Shown: positions 1 to 62,391, numbered from the stretch's first letter. The stretch is DNA of 64,000 nt from Candidatus Woesearchaeota archaeon (GCA_964623495.1 CAZUTV010000001.1:44682-108681); one strand, 5' to 3'. Notes: generated by a model from the sequence alone, not told the origin. Made by a program: numbers and translations.

Positions 1-2025
1 TTTCTCCTCAGCAAATTAGCATTGCTAACAACAGTTATTGAAGATGCAGCCATAGCAATTTCTGCAATTATTGGATGAAGAATTCCTCCAACAGCTAAAG
101 GAATAGCAACAACATTATAGGCAAAAGCCCAGAACAAGTTTTGTTTTATTTTTGAAAAAGTGGCTTTGCTTAATCTTATAGCAGCAACAACTCCCAACAA
201 AGAGCCTCTCGCTAATACTAAATCTCCTGCTTCTATTGCAATATCTGTTCCTGTTCCCATTGCAATTCCAACATTTGCCTGCTTTAATGCAGGAGCGTCA
301 TTAATTCCATCCCCAATAAATGCAACCATGCCTCTTTTTTGCAGTTCTATTACTTTATTTGCCTTGTCTTCTGGAAGAACATTTGCAATTACTTCTTTAA
401 TTCCAACTTCCTTAGCAATTGCTTTGGCAGTTCTTTCATTGTCTCCTGTAATCATAACTGTTTTATATCCTGCATAATTAAGCATTGAAATCGCTTTCAT
501 TGAGTCATCTTTAACAGCATCAGCAATCCCAATAATCCCAAGAACTTTTTTGTTTTCGGCAACAATTACAGCAGTATATCCAGAATCTTCAAATTCTTCA
601 ATATTCTTTTCAAGACCCTTTAAAAGTATGCCCTTTTCTTTCATTAATGTTGAGTTTCCAATAATAATATTCTTGCTTCCAATCTTTCCTTCAACACCCC
701 GTCCCCTTAAGATTTTGAATGATTTAACTTCTTTGTATCTCTTTAATCCTGCTTTTTGCACAATGGCCTTAGATAACGGATGCTCGCTTAGTTTTTCAAG
801 GCTTCCAGCAATTTCAAGCAAATAAGATTCTTTGACTTTAGAATAAATCTGCCTTACTTCTGGCTTTCCTTTTGTTATTGTTCCTGTTTTATCGAAAACA
901 ACATATTTTATCTCTTTCATTGTCTGGATTGCCTCTCCCTTTCTAATTAAAATTCCTTTTTTAGCTCCCATTCCGCTTCCCACAGTTAAAGCAATAGGAA
1001 CTGCAAGTCCTAAAGCACACGGACAAGCGATTACAAGAACAGAAATTGCAACCCCAATAGACCGCCCTATTTCTCCATTAAAGTACCACCAGCCGAAAAA
1101 TGTCAAAACAGCAACAACAAGTATTGATGGAACAAATATGCTTGTTATGTAATCTGCTGTTTTTTGTATTGGCACTTTTGTTCCTTGCGCTTCTTCAACC
1201 AATTCTATAATATGGGCAAGGAAAGTGTCTTTCCCTACTTTTGTGGTTTTAATATACAATATCCCATCTTGATTTAAGGTAGCTCCAATTACCGGACTTC
1301 CTTTTAATTTGTCAATAGGAAGACTTTCTCCGGTAACCATTGATTCATCAACAGCGCTCTCTCCCCTGACTACTATCCCATCTGTTGGAATCTTTTCCCC
1401 CGGCTTAACAATTAAAACATCTCCAACAACAACTTCTGAAATTGGGATTTCAACTTCTTCTTTGCCTCGCAAAACACGGGCATTTTTAGCTCCAAGTTCA
1501 AGCAGTTTTTTTATTTCTTGAGACGCTCTTCCTCTTGCCTTGGCTTCAATATATTTTCCTGTAATAAATATAGCCATAATCATTGCAGAAACCCCGGAAT
1601 AATCATTAATCTCCATAAAAAAGGTTAGTATTCCAGTTAGGTAAGCAATTATTGTTCCTAAAGAAATTAAAGAGTCCATATTAAAGTAAAATGTAAATAA
1701 CCCCCTAAATCCAGACTTTAAGGTTGAAAAGCCAAATATAAAAACAACAGGAAACCCAAGAATAAGTAAAATAGCAATTAGCCACTCTTCTGGCAAAAAC
1801 ATTAGATCAAAAACTCTCATAAGGACCATTATTATTGCAATAGGAATTGCAAAGATCCAACTGCCGACAAGTTTTCTTTTCCAGCCTCTGATTTCAGAAT
1901 CTTCTGCCGGCTTTGAATGATCATGATTATGGTTCATTCTAAGTTCTGGTTTGGGAATCTTTCTAAAAGGTTCAATTTCGTGATTTTTATTGTTCACTCT
2001 ATCATCTATTCTAAAGTGTTCCATT
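1..2025 (-). CDS. copA: Cu(I)-translocating P1B-type ATPase; 3' end runs past the window edge, which is why no ORF was reported
   Basis: Reverse-strand translation gives [16 protein letters not shown] (phosphorylation DKTGT), [18 protein letters not shown] and a His-rich N-terminus MNHNHDH. The plus-strand ORFs 160-2138 are its antisense. Confidence 0.85.
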
Positions 2026-2034
2026 TGATGTTTC

Positions 2035-2244
2035 TTAATCAATGCTTGTTACTCTGTATCCAACTTTTGCAACAGCTTTCTTTAATTCTTCATCACTTGC
2101 TTTTTCATCAGCTTCAACAAATGCCTTTTTTCCTATAACACTAACGCTGACTTCCTTGACTCCAGAAATCTTTTTCAAGCTTCTTTCAATGTTTGTTGCA
2201 CAGCTAGCACAATGCATTCCTTCTATGTTTATTTTTTTCTTCAT
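2035..2244 (-). CDS. copZ: HMA-domain copper chaperone (CopZ-like)
   Basis: [15 protein letters not shown] metal-binding MxCxxC motif; 69 aa ferredoxin-like HMA length; lies 10 nt upstream of copA. Confidence 0.8.
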
Positions 2245-2261
2245 TTTTTTATTTTATAAAT

Positions 2262-2498
2262 TTATCTTTTGTTGACTTGTTTTACTAACCAAACTACCCC
2301 TAATATGATAAATATCAATATTCCGATATTTGTAATGTAGCTAATTAATTGTCCATAGCCATATCCCCCAGATCCATAGTTCCAGTTCCCCATCATGTTG
2401 CAAATTCCCCAGCCGGAATTTCCTGTCCATGGAATCATTGCTATTGCTAATAAAATTACAGCCCCTAAAACTATCCAAACTATTCTTTGGTCTTTCAT
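2262..2498 (-). CDS. small two-TM protein with Gly/Tyr/Met/Cys-rich extracytoplasmic loop (candidate Cu-binding)
   Basis: TM-loop-TM topology; loop GNSGWGICNMMGNWNYGSGGYGYG; paralogue of 2572-2808. Confidence 0.5.
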   Translation of the reverse strand: MKDQRIVWIVLGAVILLAIAMIPWTGNSGWGICNMMGNWNYGSGGYGYGQLISYITNIGILIFIILGVVWLVKQVNKR

Positions 2499-2571
2499 TT
2501 TAATTTTTTAATTAATCTCCTATTTGAAAACTTTATTGTGAATTGTTGGTTTGGGAACCTTTTCAAAAGGT

Positions 2572-2808
2572 TCATTTTTGGATCTGCTTTACTAGCCAGA
2601 CAATGAATAAAACCGCCAAAACCAAAATAATTATATTAAATATCCATCCAAAAATCCAACCAGCTCCGTATCCATAGTTGCCAGACATCATACCCCACAT
2701 TCCACCAAAGTTGCCATATCCCATCATCCCATATCCAAATCCGCCAAAAAGCAACAAGATTAGGACGACCAAGACAACTATTAGGATAGTGTTATTATCC
2801 TCTTTCAT
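2572..2808 (-). CDS. small two-TM protein with Gly/Tyr/Met-rich loop, paralogue of 2262-2498
   Basis: Loop GGFGYGMMGYGNFGGMWGMMSGNYGYGAGW; same architecture and C-terminal WLVKQ motif. Confidence 0.5.
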   Translation of the reverse strand: MKEDNNTILIVVLVVLILLLFGGFGYGMMGYGNFGGMWGMMSGNYGYGAGWIFGWIFNIIILVLAVLFIVWLVKQIQK

Positions 2809-2809
2809 C

Positions 2810-3178
2810 TTATTTGCTTCCTCCTTTCATGTTATGCAATATGTGTATGCAATACTGCGACATGTGCTTATCAATAAGCTTCATTATTGGCTTTATTGTT
2901 TCTTCATTTAAGGAATAATAAATAAATTTCCCATCTCTTTCTGTTTTCACAAACCCGCATTGCCTTAATCTAGCAAGATCATGGGAAATTGCAGTTTGAT
3001 CCATTTTAAGTTCTCTCATTATTTCGCTAACATTCTTTTTCTCATTTCTCAATAAATTTATAATCTTTAGCCTTGACTCAGAAACCAATGTTCCAAAGAA
3101 GACTTTGTAAGCCCCATAAACTTCATTTTCATGAAACCCTTCTTTATGAACGTGATGTAACATGTTTTTATTAATCAT
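2810..3178 (-). CDS. ArsR/SmtB-family metalloregulator
   Basis: wHTH LKIINLLRNEKKNVSEIMRELKMDQTAISHDLARLRQCGFV. Confidence 0.75.
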   Translation of the reverse strand: MINKNMLHHVHKEGFHENEVYGAYKVFFGTLVSESRLKIINLLRNEKKNVSEIMRELKMDQTAISHDLARLRQCGFVKTERDGKFIYYSLNEETIKPIMKLIDKHMSQYCIHILHNMKGGSK

Positions 3179-3223
3179 ATGATAATCCCATACATATGTA
3201 TTTATAAATGTTTCGGTGTTTGA

Positions 3224-5359: not shown

Positions 5360-6061
5360 TTATTTTGCAAGCTCTGCGTCAATTGCCTGCTTGAATACTT
5401 CGTATGGTTGTGCACCGCTTATGAATGCCCCATTAACAAAAAACCCGGGAGTTCCCTGAACCCCATAGCTTTGCCCGTCAGTCATGTCTTTTCTTATTTC
5501 GCCTGCCATCTGTCCAGAGTCAAGACAGCTGTTGAACTTGCCTATATTGAGCCCTATCTGCTGAGCATAAGCCTTCAAGCTATTCACATCTAATGCTTTC
5601 TGGTTTGTAAAAAGCTTGTCATGCATTTCATAATATTTTCCCTGCTCTCCAGCACACTCCGCAGCTTCTGCTGCTTTTTGAGCATTAGGGTGGAAGCTTA
5701 ATGGAAAGTCTCTGAAAACAATTCTTACTTTTCCGGTATCAACATATTCCTTCTTTATTTGTGGATATGTCTGGCTGAAGTGCCTACCGCAATACGGACA
5801 TTCATAGTCACTGAATTCAACCATTGTTACTTCTGCATCTTTGTTGCCAAGAATGGCGTCGTCATCAATGCTTACCTGAACTTTTGAAGGCTCAGGACTA
5901 GGTACACTATCTCCTGCAACTGCATTGCCTGTCACGCTTCCTCCACTCATTCCAAATCCGCCAGTGAATAGGCTTATGACAAATAATGCTGCAAAAAGGA
6001 AGGTTCCTATCTGCCACATAGTGTGTTTTTTAACAGTTATTGATTCTTCTCTTTGTTCCAT
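5360..6061 (-). CDS. DsbA-like thiol:disulfide oxidoreductase, membrane-anchored
   Basis: Thioredoxin-fold CPYC active site (FSDYECPYCGRHF); N-terminal TM; likely start at internal MWQIG. Confidence 0.75.
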   Translation of the reverse strand: MEQREESITVKKHTMWQIGTFLFAALFVISLFTGGFGMSGGSVTGNAVAGDSVPSPEPSKVQVSIDDDAILGNKDAEVTMVEFSDYECPYCGRHFSQTYPQIKKEYVDTGKVRIVFRDFPLSFHPNAQKAAEAAECAGEQGKYYEMHDKLFTNQKALDVNSLKAYAQQIGLNIGKFNSCLDSGQMAGEIRKDMTDGQSYGVQGTPGFFVNGAFISGAQPYEVFKQAIDAELAK

Positions 6062-6125: not shown

Positions 6126-6599
6126 TTAGTCCTTTAGGACTACGATGTTATTCATCCCCCTTCGTTTTCTTTCAATCAACTGCTTGGACTCTAGCTTGTC
6201 AAGAAGTCTCGTCATCTTAACCTTGCCAATTTGAAGTTTTTCCATTACATCTGCCTGAAACATTGCATTTCCTTCTTTAGATAATAAATCAACAACAAGT
6301 TTCTCTTCTTTTTCTAAGCCAGAAATATCAAGCTTCTTCTTCTTTTCTGTAATATTCTTCACAACAATTTTTTCTTTTGGTTTTGAAAACATAATGAATA
6401 AGCCTATAATAACGATAACTCCTATAATTGTTACACTAATCCAAGTCTGAGTTCTTATTGTCCCATACATGCCACAACTCGGGCCGTGCGTGCAGGTTTG
6501 ACTAACTATATCTTTTAATCCAAAATTGAATAAAAGTACAACTGCTAGCATTATTACTGCAATTCCTAAGATTAACCAACCAACTTGTTTATTTTCCAT
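6126..6599 (-). CDS. membrane-tethered winged-helix regulator
   Basis: Two N-terminal TM segments flanking CTHGPSCGMYG, then C-terminal wHTH MTRLLDKLESKQLIERKRRGMNNIVVL. Confidence 0.55.
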   Translation of the reverse strand: MENKQVGWLILGIAVIMLAVVLLFNFGLKDIVSQTCTHGPSCGMYGTIRTQTWISVTIIGVIVIIGLFIMFSKPKEKIVVKNITEKKKKLDISGLEKEEKLVVDLLSKEGNAMFQADVMEKLQIGKVKMTRLLDKLESKQLIERKRRGMNNIVVLKD

Positions 6600-7001: not shown

Positions 7002-7307
7002 TTAGTGACATTCGCAATTGCAATTAGGTTTGTTACAACAACATCTTGCATGTTTATCTGTCATCTCAAGCATTGGGATCACTGTTTTACTGAGAGAATA
7101 TATCCTTTCCTTGCCTTTCTGCTTAGAATTGACGATTCTGCATTTTTTTAGGGATGCAAGCGCATGAGAAAGCTTGCTTTGTTCAACTTTAAGCTCCTTT
7201 ACAAGCTCGCTAACATTTTTGTCCTTATTTCTCAAACTAAGAATTATCTCAATCTTTAACGGATTAGCAAGGTTCGTAAAAAATGTACAATAAAAGTGTT
7301 TCTGCAT
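7002..7307 (-). CDS. ArsR/SmtB-family regulator with C-terminal Cys cluster
   Basis: HTH NVSELVKELKVEQSKLSHALASLKKCRIV; tail CCCNKPNCNCECH. Confidence 0.7.
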   Translation of the reverse strand: MQKHFYCTFFTNLANPLKIEIILSLRNKDKNVSELVKELKVEQSKLSHALASLKKCRIVNSKQKGKERIYSLSKTVIPMLEMTDKHARCCCNKPNCNCECH

Positions 7308-7449: not shown

Positions 7450-7938
7450 ATGAGTTCAAGCACAGGGTTGATAATTGTTGTTACAATCGCTTTAATTGCC
7501 GTAGTTCTTATAGGCGGCTATTTATTGCTAGGCGATTTTTCAAGTTATGATGAAGATCAAGATTATGTTGCTCCTAGCAATTCTTTCGATCAAGAGCTTT
7601 CTAACCTAAGAGAAGCAAATTTTCAATTGAGCATGCAGCTTAGCAATGCCCAAAACGAAATTAAGAACTTAAAATCTCAGCAAAACCAATACTCTCAAGC
7701 ATCAACCGATGACAGAAAATGCAGCAACCTTGATGATGACTATGATGAAATTAAGGAAGACATAGATGATAAAGAAGAGGATATTGAAGACTTAGAGGAT
7801 GAAATAGACAGGAAAATACTCAATAACGAAACAGTGACTGACTTGCAAAACAGATTAGACAACTTATACGAAGATTTAGATGACCTTGAAAATGATCTTG
7901 ATGACATCAAGGACGATTTAGACAGATATAACTGCTGA
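7450..7938 (+). CDS. N-terminal TM anchor plus acidic coiled-coil protein
   Basis: TM helix, then highly acidic heptad-like region (DDDYDEIKEDIDDKEEDIEDLEDEID). Confidence 0.45.
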   Translation: MSSSTGLIIVVTIALIAVVLIGGYLLLGDFSSYDEDQDYVAPSNSFDQELSNLREANFQLSMQLSNAQNEIKNLKSQQNQYSQASTDDRKCSNLDDDYDEIKEDIDDKEEDIEDLEDEIDRKILNNETVTDLQNRLDNLYEDLDDLENDLDDIKDDLDRYNC

Positions 7939-11797: not shown

Positions 11798-11823
11798 ATA
11801 CATTCTTAACAATAGTTATTACA

Positions 11824-12195
11824 ATGCCCAAACCCAAAACAGTTTCAGAATATATTTCAAAAGCTCCTAAAGAAGTTCAAGTAAGGCTTAGACAGATGCA
11901 GAAAGCAATCAAAGCATCTGCCCCCAAATCACTCGAAGGTATTAAATGGAGCATGATTTCATACTCTTACTCAAGAATTTTAGTTATGTTTGCTTATTTT
12001 AAGAACCATATTGGATTTTTCCCAACCCCAAGCGCAATAAAAACATTTTCAAAAGATCTTAAAAAATATAAAACATCCAAAGGAACAATTCAGTTTCCCA
12101 ATGATAAGCCAATCCCTATAGGATTAATAAAGAAAATTGTAAAGTTCAGAGTAAATGAAAGTAAAGAAAGGGATGTTAAGTGGAAGGGGAAATAA
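11824..12195 (+). CDS. DUF1801 (YdhG-like) domain protein
   Basis: Motif resemblance only. Confidence 0.45.
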   Translation: MPKPKTVSEYISKAPKEVQVRLRQMQKAIKASAPKSLEGIKWSMISYSYSRILVMFAYFKNHIGFFPTPSAIKTFSKDLKKYKTSKGTIQFPNDKPIPIGLIKKIVKFRVNESKERDVKWKGK

Positions 12196-21226: not shown

Positions 21227-21245
21227 ACTAGTATTTAAACCTTTC
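21227..21245. promoter_or_regulatory. BRE/TATA-like element ACTAGTATTTAAACCTTTC (orphan copy)
   Basis: Near-identical to motifs upstream of the minus-strand genes at 44519 and 51115. Confidence 0.35.
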
Positions 21246-34561: not shown

Positions 34562-34641
34562 GTCTTAAAGAATAAAGATGGATTAATAAAATTATCTTAA
34601 AGTATATAAAACCTTAAATATTAATTAAGATAATTATAGCA

Positions 34642-37026: not shown

Positions 37027-37261
37027 AAATTTTATATACTTCCAGTACCTTTATTTATAATGAAAAAGCTGACTATCGAGTCAGGTTCGGTATTTGATTA
37101 TAAGGAATCTGATACTGATCAGGACGAACTCGAAGAGCCTTTTCCCGATTCTAAAGAGGAAGAAGACGTTTCTTCCGTTAACTAAAAAACAATTTTTACC
37201 TTATAAACCTTTTTTCCTTAGCATTTTTGGAAAAGCTCATTATCAAAACCTTTTTTAATCT

Positions 37262-44579: not shown

Positions 44580-44598
44580 ACTAGTATTTAAACCTTTC
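44580..44598 (-). promoter_or_regulatory. BRE/TATA element (GAAAGGTTTAAATACTAGT on minus strand)
   Basis: About 60-80 nt upstream of the start at 44519. Confidence 0.4.
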
Positions 44599-55755: not shown

Positions 55756-56370
55756 ATGGGAAAAGCCATAGACATCATACTGATAATCCTTATAGCAATA
55801 GTGATAATTACAATAGCAGGGGTATTTTTCTTAAACAATAATGCAGATAATTTTTTTGGCATTGACAACGATCAAACCATAAACGACGACCAGGATGTTA
55901 ACGGAGATTTTCCAACCTATCCTGATGAAGAACCAGAAAGTGAACCAAACTCTTCAGGATCAAGCTCTAGCGGAAGCAGTGGAGGCGGTGAAAGCAATCC
56001 GGGAGGAAATATAAATCCAATTACAGGATGTGCTACTTCCTCTATTTCTTACTCAATAGAAGATATAACTATAGAAGAAACCTGCAATTTTTACAATAAT
56101 GAGATATGCACAGATAAAACAGTTACCTGCTCTGCAGAGATTCACAACCTTGACTCAGAATCTGATGGAATATTCAAAGTAATACTTAAATTCATGGAAG
56201 GAGACATGGCAAATGGAATTATTCTTGAATCAAAATCCAGGGAATTTTCTGTTCCTGCAGGACAATTCGAGATATTCATGGAAACAATAAATCTTCTGGG
56301 GGAAGAAGCCGGCAAGCAACTCAACTGCTTTTACAATACCGAAGAACCTCCAAGCACAGACCCGTGTTAG
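55756..56370 (+). CDS. membrane-anchored Cys-rich extracellular protein
   Basis: N-terminal TM; Ser/Gly linker; 8 Cys. Confidence 0.4.
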   Translation: MGKAIDIILIILIAIVIITIAGVFFLNNNADNFFGIDNDQTINDDQDVNGDFPTYPDEEPESEPNSSGSSSSGSSGGGESNPGGNINPITGCATSSISYSIEDITIEETCNFYNNEICTDKTVTCSAEIHNLDSESDGIFKVILKFMEGDMANGIILESKSREFSVPAGQFEIFMETINLLGEEAGKQLNCFYNTEEPPSTDPC

Positions 56371-56822
56371 CTTATTAAAACATAGCTTTGCTTTGCTTCT
56401 AAAGTGATCTTCTTTATTCCAGGCGTGTTTGTAATGCCTCCCTGCAGAGGAACATTACTATTATAGGCTCTTTTATTGGTGGTTGTACTCACCGTCGTTG
56501 TTATAAAGATATAATCTGCATTCACTTCTATACTTTGAACGCCTTCTGGCAGATAAAGACTTATTGTTGTTTTGCTCGGCTCGCCTGCAAAAAAGACATT
56601 TTCTGCAGAGTTAATTACCTGGGTTGCAAAACTCTCTATCTGGTTAAGCCTAATTTGGTCATTAATCCTATTAGAATAGAAAAAAGCAACAGTAAGTATT
56701 GAAAGTATAGCAAAGGTTATGAATCCAACAACAATCAAATATTCAACGCCAACTTGCGAACGTTTGCACGAGGCAATCCAAACGCAGGTGCTGGCGCGAG
56801 TTGAGCCTCTTTTCTTCATCAT
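56367..56822 (-). CDS. pilin-like protein (class III signal peptide)
   Basis: SQVGVEYLIVVGFITFAILSIL. Confidence 0.5.
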   Translation of the reverse strand: MMKKRGSTRASTCVWIASCKRSQVGVEYLIVVGFITFAILSILTVAFFYSNRINDQIRLNQIESFATQVINSAENVFFAGEPSKTTISLYLPEGVQSIEVNADYIFITTTVSTTTNKRAYNSNVPLQGGITNTPGIKKITLEAKQSYVLIS

Positions 56823-56878
56823 TTTTTATTTTTAAAAAGGTTTATTTATTGTAGATACTTGGTTTTAGAAACCTTTTT

Positions 56879-56895
56879 TGAAAAGGTTTATATAA
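56879..56895 (+). promoter_or_regulatory. BRE/TATA element GAAAAGGTTTATATAAC embedded in a palindrome
   Basis: About 50 nt upstream of ATG 56947. Confidence 0.35.
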
Positions 56896-62264: not shown

Positions 62265-62391
62265 TGCGCGGACCGGGAATCGGACCCGGGTCACCTCGTC
62301 TTTGCATTTTTGCTTCTTTGAGCGCCGAACTTTCTTTCTAAAGAAAGTTGGGCATTGGCAACGAGATATTCTACCATTAAACCATCCGCGC
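62265..62391 (-). tRNA. tRNA-Gly (GCC) with about 54-nt intron in the anticodon loop
   Basis: Perfect acceptor GCGCGGA/TCCGCGC and T-arm CCGGG-TCCGATT-CCCGG; anticodon stem TCTCG...CGAGG interrupted after TTGCCA by an insert with an internal hairpin. Confidence 0.7.

Follow-up and report, generated by a model that had tools for sequence, protein, structure and literature searches.

A short dispersed hairpin repeat of DPANN archaea, probably an insertion element, in the cop operon of a Candidatus Woesearchaeota genome

The DNA analyzed here, hereafter the window, is a stretch of 64,000 nucleotides (nt) from Candidatus Woesearchaeota archaeon (GCA_964623495.1, CAZUTV010000001.1:44682-108681) containing a cop operon in which a short palindromic segment occurs twice. 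Both segments are probably copies, independent of each other, of a short hairpin repeat that is dispersed in and specific to Pacearchaeota-like DPANN archaea; the repeat would be a non-autonomous insertion element of the type of the repetitive extragenic palindromes (REPs) and the miniature transposable elements with inverted repeats (MITEs). The window has a G+C content of 35%. Its tRNA genes have no encoded CCA and one of them has an intron (62265-62391). Its CopA matches a protein from JGI/NCBI contigs at 100% identity, and the close relatives of this CopA are labeled Pacearchaeota, Nanoarchaeota or "Nanoarchaeia"; the window therefore belongs to a DPANN archaeon. The genes surrounding both copies all lie on the minus strand, in a single operon with the order ArsR, protein A, spacer, protein B, CopZ and CopA. 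The features are listed below, with scores for the repeat taken from the covariance model R1.

3176..3208, minus strand: ArsR promoter, with TATA box TTTATAAA (3201-3208) and CATATG boxes at 3193-3198 and 3176-3181
2810..3178, minus strand: ArsR-family regulator, the first gene of the operon (Pfam HTH_5, 4.4e-15)
2572..2808, minus strand: small membrane protein A, 78 amino acids; it stops at 2572-2574 on the TGA within the repeat's ATGAACC
Between proteins A and B: spacer of 73 nt, holding the intact repeat copy
2544..2576, minus strand: copy 2, intact (AATGAACCTTTTGAAAAGGTTCCCAAACCAACA); R1 55.8 bits, E 1.7e-18; exact match to the genome scan pattern
2495..2575, minus strand: 26-codon open reading frame (ORF) (MNLLKRFPNQQFTIKFSNRRLIKKLK), by direct reading, opening at the intact repeat's ATG
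2262..2498, minus strand: small membrane protein B, 78 amino acids, of the type occurring singly in operon L087
2035..2244, minus strand: CopZ-like HMA metallochaperone (Pfam HMA, 1.2e-14)
1..2024, minus strand: CopA P-type Cu+ ATPase, starting at 2024 and running off the window; N-terminal tail variable and His-rich
1944..1976, minus strand: copy 1, decayed (ATTGAACCTTTTAGAAAGATTCCCAAACCAGAA), in frame within copA codons 17-27; R1 48.7 bits, E 1e-15
56858..56892, minus strand: third copy, weak and divergent, of "type B" (TATAAACCTTTTCAAAAAAGGTTTCTAAAACCAAG); full-length R1 match, 22.7 bits, E ~1e-5

A repeat search of the window aligned 1947-1978 with 2547-2578 over 32 nt, of which 28 (88%) are identical, with the two starts exactly 600 nt apart. 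The original prediction, made from the sequence alone, had placed palindromes with this spacing at 1955-1973 and 2555-2573, and the search bore it out; it had also put the first near the start of copA and the second at the stop of the gene 2572-2808, where codons 17-27 and an overlapped TGA, respectively, are indeed found, with the GGTTTGGGAA flank present at both. Its stretch of about 55 nt at about 80% identity was too generous: the repeat is real over 32 nt, but identity drops to 35/55 (64%) over 55 nt, the similarity being confined to approximately 32-36 nt (28/32; 29/36). The palindrome at 2555-2573 (GAACCTTTTCAAAAGGTTC) is perfect over 19 nt, with an 8-bp stem and a 3-nt loop, and the one at 1955-1973 (GAATCTTTCTAAAAGGTTC) is two mismatches from perfect. 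Within the 64 kb, only these two match the palindrome with no more than three mismatches, against an expectation of 0.09. The third palindrome, predicted at 56867-56890, is likewise real, although as a weak R1 match; it stands 35 nt upstream of the gene 56822..56367, and its opposite strand overlaps the transcription factor B recognition element (BRE) and TATA box (AAAAGGTTTATATA) of the divergent gene. R1 found nothing else convincing in the window. As RNA in the sense direction, copy 2 is predicted to fold at -7.6 kcal/mol (z = -2.0) and the third copy at -7.8 kcal/mol (z = -2.9), while copy 1, in which one stem pair is broken by a G-to-A change, reaches only -0.9 kcal/mol, which is not significant.

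Read on the minus strand, both copies encode a similar peptide in the same relative frame (EPFEKVPKPT in copy 2). The claim that the reading frames differ, so that conservation could not be protein-driven, was thus incomplete and misleading, but conservation at the nucleotide level is supported by the family data below. In the frame equivalent to CopA, copy 2 is in no annotated gene and has TAG and TAA just upstream. The copA gene has 22 proline codons, and its sole CCC codon is inside copy 1. At copy 2 the stop of protein A (2574..2572) and an ATG (2575..2573) overlap as ATGA, and the 26-codon ORF opening there overlaps the protein A stop and the protein B start, each as ATGA. This ORF is probably a by-product and not a conserved peptide; in many family members the same ATG frame meets a stop at codon 4 (loops TAG and TAA). 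In locus L089 the orthologue of protein A terminates as ...KQIQKK* within an A-run, on a TAG of its own, and protein A of the window ends ...KQIQK* on the TGA of the repeat, a difference that fits an insertion of copy 2 into the A-run. Elsewhere in the window, at 11823-11838 and 7645-7660 (both plus strand), AATG is followed directly by CCCAAACC or CCCAAAAC, so that both family flanks are present without the hairpin. These matches score 15.8-15.9 bits (R1, E ~0.005), the one at 11823-11838 sits at the start codon of the ORF 11824-12195, and they could be chance or footprints of hairpin loss.

A genome scan with the pattern AACCTTTNNNAAANNTTCCCAAAMC covered 596 Gb, one genome for each of 185,579 species, and gave 72 matches in 71 stretches. 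Sixty-one matches are in DPANN archaea, in 21 metagenome-assembled genomes (MAGs) titled Pacearchaeota, Woesearchaeota or Nanoarchaeota, and the 11 in bacteria are scattered single chance hits without the flanks or a proper hairpin. The MAG richest in exact copies has 11 (CAYQXU01), followed by 9 (JBBSZB01), 5 (CAZRQO01) and then 4, 4 and 4. Viral contigs scanned with the repeat pattern gave no matches, Rfam 15 at gathering score returned only tRNAs from the window and 8 loci, and no description of the motif, nor of REP-like repeats in DPANN archaea, was found in the literature searched.

The sense-strand consensus is AAT-GAACCTTT-NNN-AAAGGTTC-CCAAA(C/A)C, a unit of approximately 28-33 nt, and the alignment of copies gives AATGAACCTTT-NNN-AAAGGTTCCCAAA(C/A)C over 33 columns; the search pattern describing the repeat is TGAACCTTTNNNAAAGGTTCCCAAAMC. 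The type B variant reads AAACCTTTT-N3-5-AAAAGGTTT-CCAAAA (also written AATAAACCTTTT-N3-5-AAAAGGTTTCCAAAA), with the search pattern AAACCTTTTN{3,5}AAAAGGTTTCCAAA. The loop triplet is free (TGA, TGG, TAA, AGG, CAA, TCA, GGA and others, TAG included), and since it includes codon-4 stops in the ATG frame, no peptide is conserved. The stem is nearly invariant: variation is limited to the outermost pair, with compensatory changes (G-C in 80 copies, A-U in 25), and the other seven pairs are practically constant. When structure alone was searched for, all 110 perfect hairpin+CCAAA units had the arm AACCTTT, and a search for other arm sequences in the same architecture found none. The repeat is a sequence family and not a generic fold, with no evidence for an RNA family defined by structure only.

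A covariance search with R1 of 483 kb of fetched loci (8-kb loci around copies, designated L below) gave 223 matches, approximately 114 of them full length and many of them type B; the gene map of L056 alone shows seven. Pairs of copies were identical at a frequency of 0.256 within genomes versus 0.116 between genomes (permutation p ~0.001), which fits genome-specific amplification. L067 has, between a tRNA and the L18e operon, an array of eight B/A units that alternate and are joined directly, head to tail, and tandem B/A arrays are present in further colonized genomes. Two other repeat types were seen beside family copies. An unrelated hairpin repeat of ~60 nt (...AAAAAGGACCAAGGTCCTTCTTATGACATCTCCTTTAGGAGAAGG...) interrupts copies in L027 (2370-2465 and ~1560-1640) and L056 (4454-4549), which suggests nested insertions and further repeat families. 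In L050 and L060, just upstream of family copies, lies a related hairpin, TAACTTTTGTAAAAGTTAC, in which a C-G pair of the family stem is replaced by T-A, a compensatory change. AAAAC follows this hairpin, which may belong to a sister family.

The copies are far from random in position and orientation. Among the 114 full-length R1 matches the downstream gene is co-oriented in 88 and not in 11, approximately 100 lie outside ORF interiors, and those inside ORFs are sense in 11 cases and antisense in one. The 60 exact copies behave alike, with 45 downstream genes co-oriented and 7 not (several of the 7 being tRNA cases), six copies placed deep within sense ORFs and one within an antisense ORF. For nineteen exact copies the distance from their end to the next ATG is 9-23 nt. 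Eight have the upstream stop 2-4 nt ahead of the hairpin (TAATG or TAAATG), and in the window and L026 the upstream gene stops on the TGA of the repeat itself, in an ATGA overlap. Copies within ORFs occupy the first 8 or the last 13 codons and are read as EPFxKVPKP or MNLLKRFPN. The downstream genes encode L24, S13, L31e, L15e, S10, L18e, aIF2-gamma, aIF5B, Rrp41, PGK, pilins and a CopG-like protein, names that are our own reading of the protein sequences and not the result of a database search, and they show no link to metal resistance.

Copies of the repeat were also found in tRNA introns at position 37/38, namely in L022 (tRNA-Thr GGU) and L017 (tRNA-Lys UUU) as located by Rfam, with L073 and L048 alike by eye. 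The UGAACC of the repeat starts at the first intron base after position 37 in L022, L073 and L048, and one base further in for L017. The intron-containing tRNA gene of the window (62265-62391, minus strand, 127 nt; Rfam 48.8 bits), which ARAGORN missed, has in its intron a palindrome of its own, CAACTTTCTTTAGAAAGAAAGTTCG, that is not of the family studied here.

T-runs of at least five residues in the unit and its flanks were seen on the sense strand in 2 of 114 copies and on the antisense strand in 62 of 114; an intrinsic terminator, with its sense-strand T-run at the gene end, is thus not what the repeat resembles, and copy 2 was flagged as terminator-like on the antisense strand only. The palindrome folds alike in both directions, and the orientation asymmetry must therefore come from the flanks or from the mechanism. 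We infer that antisense copies in operons would be polar, their hairpin standing next to runs of five or more T, which are archaeal termination signals, and would be lost through selection. An insertion mechanism that is transcript- or strand-specific might instead produce the sense bias.

Several comparisons point to insertion. The N-termini of 120 CopA homologues (designated P) are variable and His-rich, and the closest of them, at 82-90% identity, lack the copy 1 segment. In a more distant clade (P0033, P0039/41/43, P0044, P0049) similar peptides stand just before the conserved EHDHS motif, and their DNA contains the same element, RAACCTTT-NNN-AAA-NN-TTCCCAAAMC, in which the CCT and CCC proline codons are invariant; in some copA genes of this clade the element is partly duplicated in tandem. 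The copA genes of L009 (P0039) and L088 (P0040) are near-identical in DNA but differ by a clean 39-nt block that consists of the 27-nt element and a second copy of GAACATGATCAT, and P0044 versus P0076 gives a like pattern of presence and absence at the protein level. In the L009 copZ-copA spacer (5888-6000) there is, in addition, an insertion of ~90 nt absent from the near-identical L088; it holds the direct repeat TCCCTGAAGCATCACC(C/T)T(C/T)CTTTA twice and represents another small repeat type.

Direct repeats of 9-21 nt flank 11 of the 60 exact copies. In eight of the 11 (L015, L026, L030, L032, L040, L041, L043, L076) what is repeated is the downstream gene's start region, from 1-5 nt ahead of its ATG to +7..+28, in the order promoter-proximal copy, element, intact gene. 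The period of these flanking repeats is 49 nt (L026, L030, L041, L076) or 39-41 nt (L039, L040, L043, L053, L079, L009), whatever the length of the repeat. Direct repeats of at least 9 nt were counted at 14 of 60 copies versus 29 of 300 shuffled pairings, which is only modestly above the null because type-B repeats inflate it.

Many copies per genome, tandem arrays, genome-specific variants and clean presence or absence with direct repeats are the behavior of a REP/MITE-type insertion element, and we infer that the copies arise by insertion. The copies that survive would then be nearly confined to places that a compact genome can tolerate, and would be in sense: at stop/start junctions, at ORF ends and in tRNA introns, those in the first or last codons of ORFs being read in whichever frame stays open. 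Copy 2 would have landed in the A-run at the 3' end of the protein A gene, where it now gives the TGA stop and a predicted stable intercistronic RNA hairpin, and copy 1 would have landed in the variable, His-rich N-terminal tail of CopA, to be translated there and later to lose a stem pair. The effect of the repeat on cop expression would at most be that of a generic RNA hairpin.

Several observations weigh against this interpretation. Approximately 80% of the copies have no recognizable flanking direct repeat, and the length of the repeats that are seen varies (9-21 nt), unlike that of classical DDE transposition. No transposase, nuclease or other mobilizing enzyme was identified, and no genome-wide search was made for one. 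The up to six full-length copies per 8-kb locus are a density biased upward, the loci having been picked for containing the repeat, and in the 64 kb of the window there are just 2-3; genes in the fetched loci were placed by simple ORF calls made for this analysis. That the repeat is kept for a function could be read from its strict sense orientation, from how tightly it is spaced to start codons and from the surplus of ribosomal-protein and translation genes downstream. It is also retained at orthologous sites across species while the adjacent spacer diverges (L037/L081, L016/L024, L026/L060), and its invariant stem sequence fits recognition by a sequence-specific protein as well.

The last points lead to the strongest competitor, a host-selected cis-acting RNA hairpin serving as punctuation of operon transcripts, in which the hairpin and CCAAA tail would set mRNA processing, stability or re-initiation between tightly packed, mostly Shine-Dalgarno-less cistrons, with mobility secondary or historical. 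A sense bias of approximately 8-9:1, the position of 19 of 45 copies 9-23 nt upstream of the next ATG, the frequent overlap of a stop with the repeat's ATG as TAATG or ATGA, the downstream genes for L24, S13, L31e, L15e, S10, L18e, aIF2-gamma, aIF5B and Rrp41, and the 24/25 identity of L037 and L081 at an orthologous site despite a diverged neighboring spacer would all be explained, as would, in the window, a predicted hairpin of -7.6 kcal/mol in a spacer occupied by a 26-codon ORF with ATGA overlaps at both ends. However, the hairpin of a perfect palindrome alone cannot explain an orientation bias, covariation is limited to one stem pair, and the distance to start codons varies widely (9-23 nt and beyond). 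The nearest cop operons do without the repeat, copy 1 has lost its hairpin, and copies in coding regions, tRNA introns and arrays of up to eight units are hard to fit to one defined function. We regard this explanation as rather unlikely. The original prediction came nearest to the truth with its candidate of a hairpin RNA element, in that the segment appears, from its sequence, to be a hairpin-forming repeat predominantly in sense, but one belonging to a dispersed family and not a locus-specific riboregulator. Somewhat further from our expectation is a new archaeal mobile hairpin that enters genes via transcripts or the transcribed strand and is neutralized at the level of RNA or translation, an "introner-like" or "punctuation" element as opposed to a passive REP. 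Entry via transcripts would explain why the orientation is strictly sense, why the 9-21 nt that are duplicated are the first ones of (largely leaderless) genes, beginning no more than a few bases from the start codon, and why tRNA introns have the repeat exactly at their 5' edge. Neutralization might proceed by re-initiation or by an endonuclease that processes the RNA at the AAU/hairpin/CCAA module.

The remaining explanations fare less well than that of an insertion element. Spacing of exactly 600 nt suggested that the repeats are the direct-repeat ends of a duplicated or recombined module (protein B, copZ and the 5' end of copA), and related operons have either an A-type or a B-type protein, never both, with copy 2 located exactly at the A|B junction of the window. 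Yet the small-protein paralogues are offset by ~307-310 nt and not 600, the similarity stops after approximately 32 nt, proteins A and B are distinct orthologue types found singly elsewhere, the corresponding junctions in L087 (B-type) and in L085/L089 (A-type) have no repeat, and near-identical repeats occur in unrelated loci of 21 genomes. The scar of a segmental duplication, which the original prediction had proposed, is accordingly improbable, although the repeat is a possible recombination hotspot. An operator for the operon's ArsR-type metal regulators, also proposed there, has against it nearly everything learned about the family. The attraction was a perfect palindrome (core GAACCTTTTNAAAAGGTTC; GAACCTTTTGAAAAGGTTC) inside a metal-resistance operon encoding ArsR-family proteins, and L009 does have a type-B copy just upstream of its ArsR gene. 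However, the four closest cop operons (L085/L086, L087, L089, L088) have no R1 match anywhere, neither copy is at the operon promoter, where an inverted repeat kept in orthologous operons would be expected of an ArsR/SmtB operator, the promoter has a different motif, kept in four operons, and the repeat flanks dozens of unrelated genes (ribosomal-protein, translation-factor, exosome, pilin) and occurs in tRNA introns in 21 genomes. We give this role very little credence, and as little to a peptide module, EPFxKVPKP, under protein-level selection. E-P-[FL]-x-K-[VIL]-P-K-[PT] is indeed found in CopA of the window, L003, L004 and L006 (with a variant, KPFKKDSKQ, in L009) and in C-terminal tails in L021, L047 and L082, but other ORFs read this DNA as MNLLKRFPN, and in spacers and tRNA introns it is untranslated; synonymous positions (CCT, CCC) do not vary, even though copA has no CCC outside the repeat, the loop triplet is free, and the two window copies differ only non-synonymously (R/E, I/V). 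Least credible of all is chance similarity arising from AT-rich, BRE/TATA-like composition. The right arm, AAAGGTT(T), does equal the 5' part of the promoter consensus AAAGGTTTAAATA / AAAAGGTTTATATA, the identity extending over the first 8-9 bases, and the third palindrome overlaps a real promoter. Against this, two matches were observed in the window where 0.09 were expected, 61 exact matches of 19-20 specified bases fall in a few small DPANN genomes versus 11 in the rest of the 185,579 species, and the distance from the would-be TATA box to the downstream ATG (7-23 nt) is too short and variable for a promoter. A motif abundant at random positions was what the original prediction had named as its own refutation; the repeat is abundant, but highly non-random in position and orientation.

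In the host, the promoter consensus (BRE plus TATA) was seen at 37206-37253, 44585-44597, 21232-21244, 34603-34615 and 56883-56895. Some further candidates were tried and rejected. The repeat does not carry a start codon, type B having ATA, the G being the first stem base and codon-4 stops being many; nor is it a promoter mimicking BRE/TATA, for which the distances to downstream ATGs are too short and too variable. A programmed +1 frameshift extending protein A into EPFEKVPKPT was dropped, the same DNA being present in unrelated contexts across the family. Translational bypass was rejected for want of a consistent frame and of a stop after the upstream repeat, and an intron in mRNAs because no bulge-helix-bulge (BHB) motif could be built by hand around the repeat.

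As to the control of the cop operon, TTTATAAA followed by two CATATG boxes 17 nt apart upstream of ArsR is common to the window, L085, L089 and L088, and the second box overlaps the ArsR start codon. These boxes are the likelier ArsR operator, probably autoregulatory and unrelated to the repeat. Proteins A and B are divergent Gly/Tyr/Met-rich membrane proteins between ArsR and CopZ, neither with a Pfam match; related operons carry one each, A-type in L085 and L089 and B-type in L087, and the window has both. A few kb upstream, the same metal/redox gene cluster contains a second ArsR-family gene (HTH_5; 7002-7307, minus strand) and a MarR/DUF7343 regulator (6126-6599, minus strand); cupredoxins and a thioredoxin resembling DsbA are encoded there too.

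The genomes of DPANN archaea are tiny and dense in genes, and repeats are usually considered scarce in them. A repeat of this kind is a practical hazard for their annotation, since it gives rise to N-terminal extensions that are spurious, to short ORFs that bridge genes, to new stop codons and to seemingly "conserved peptides" (EPFxKVPKP). It is also a ready marker for strain-level variation in Pacearchaeota, and a handle on the expression of tightly packed operons, many genes in the loci read showing no Shine-Dalgarno sequence, and on the gain of tRNA introns. For the window itself, a tempting regulatory model of the cop operon falls, and ArsR control is better sought at the CATATG boxes. Features that merit follow-up are the strictness of the sense orientation, the duplicated gene starts, the position of copies at tRNA-intron edges and the quantized repeat period.

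Among known systems, a CRISPR array is not what the copies form; they are single or abut in alternating A/B units, with no spacers. The byps of Magnusiomyces mitochondria and the coding gap of T4 gene 60 (50 nt) are short (27-55 nt) hairpin-containing coding inserts flanked by matching sequence, and several copies of the repeat have a repeat period of 49 nt, near that of the gene 60 gap. In contrast to these, the repeat has no consistent take-off frame or stop after the upstream repeat and is mostly intergenic or read through in frame. Typical MITEs, which occur in bacteria and archaea, are roughly 50-500 bp. Like them, the repeat is non-coding and multi-copy, shows indel polymorphism with direct repeats, and can be co-transcribed with or translated within host genes. 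However, at 28-33 nt it is several-fold smaller, it is one hairpin instead of terminal inverted repeats around a core, and its flanking repeats occur at only ~11 of 60 copies and have no fixed length.

Transposed tRNA introns have been inferred in Thermoproteales (Fujishima et al. 2010, as summarized in PMC4090602). The likeness, as far as that summary goes, is in near-identical short sequences within introns of different tRNAs (here tRNA-Thr GGU and tRNA-Lys UUU), which imply a DNA-level spread of intron sequence in an archaeon. Unlike those introns, most copies of the repeat are outside tRNAs, and within tRNAs it is only the 5' part of a longer intron. A BHB drawn by hand at the tRNA copies is only half formed (AAU bulge, hairpin, and CCAA with UUGG of the tRNA-Thr anticodon loop).

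REPs and the bacterial interspersed mosaic elements (BIMEs) that they form are bacterial, are mobilized by RAYT tyrosine transposases and have a GTAG or CGTC tag at one end (PMC3733652); in that survey archaea appear only in the reference list. The repeat differs from them in several respects. It has no GTAG or CGTC, its flanks being AAT (5') and CCAAA(C/A)C (3'); it is AT-rich where REPs are GC-rich; its hosts are DPANN archaea; and some copies have flanking direct repeats of 9-21 nt. Its arrays are head-to-tail only and nearly always sense, whereas REPs favor head-head and tail-tail pairs and positions between convergent genes (PMC3733652). No RAYT was identified in the 8-kb loci examined, where no search aimed at one was made. 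The resemblances are nevertheless close. REPs are single stem-loop units of 20-40 nt, with stems of 6-13 bp and loops of 2-4 nt (PMC3733652), and the repeat has an 8-bp stem and a 3-nt loop, with an unpaired conserved tag at one end. In both, many copies per genome (here up to 11 exact copies per MAG, and more by the model) are mostly intergenic and some intragenic, and occur as singles, dimers and tandem mosaics, with family variants in related genomes. The bacterial REP/BIME class is the closest counterpart of the repeat.

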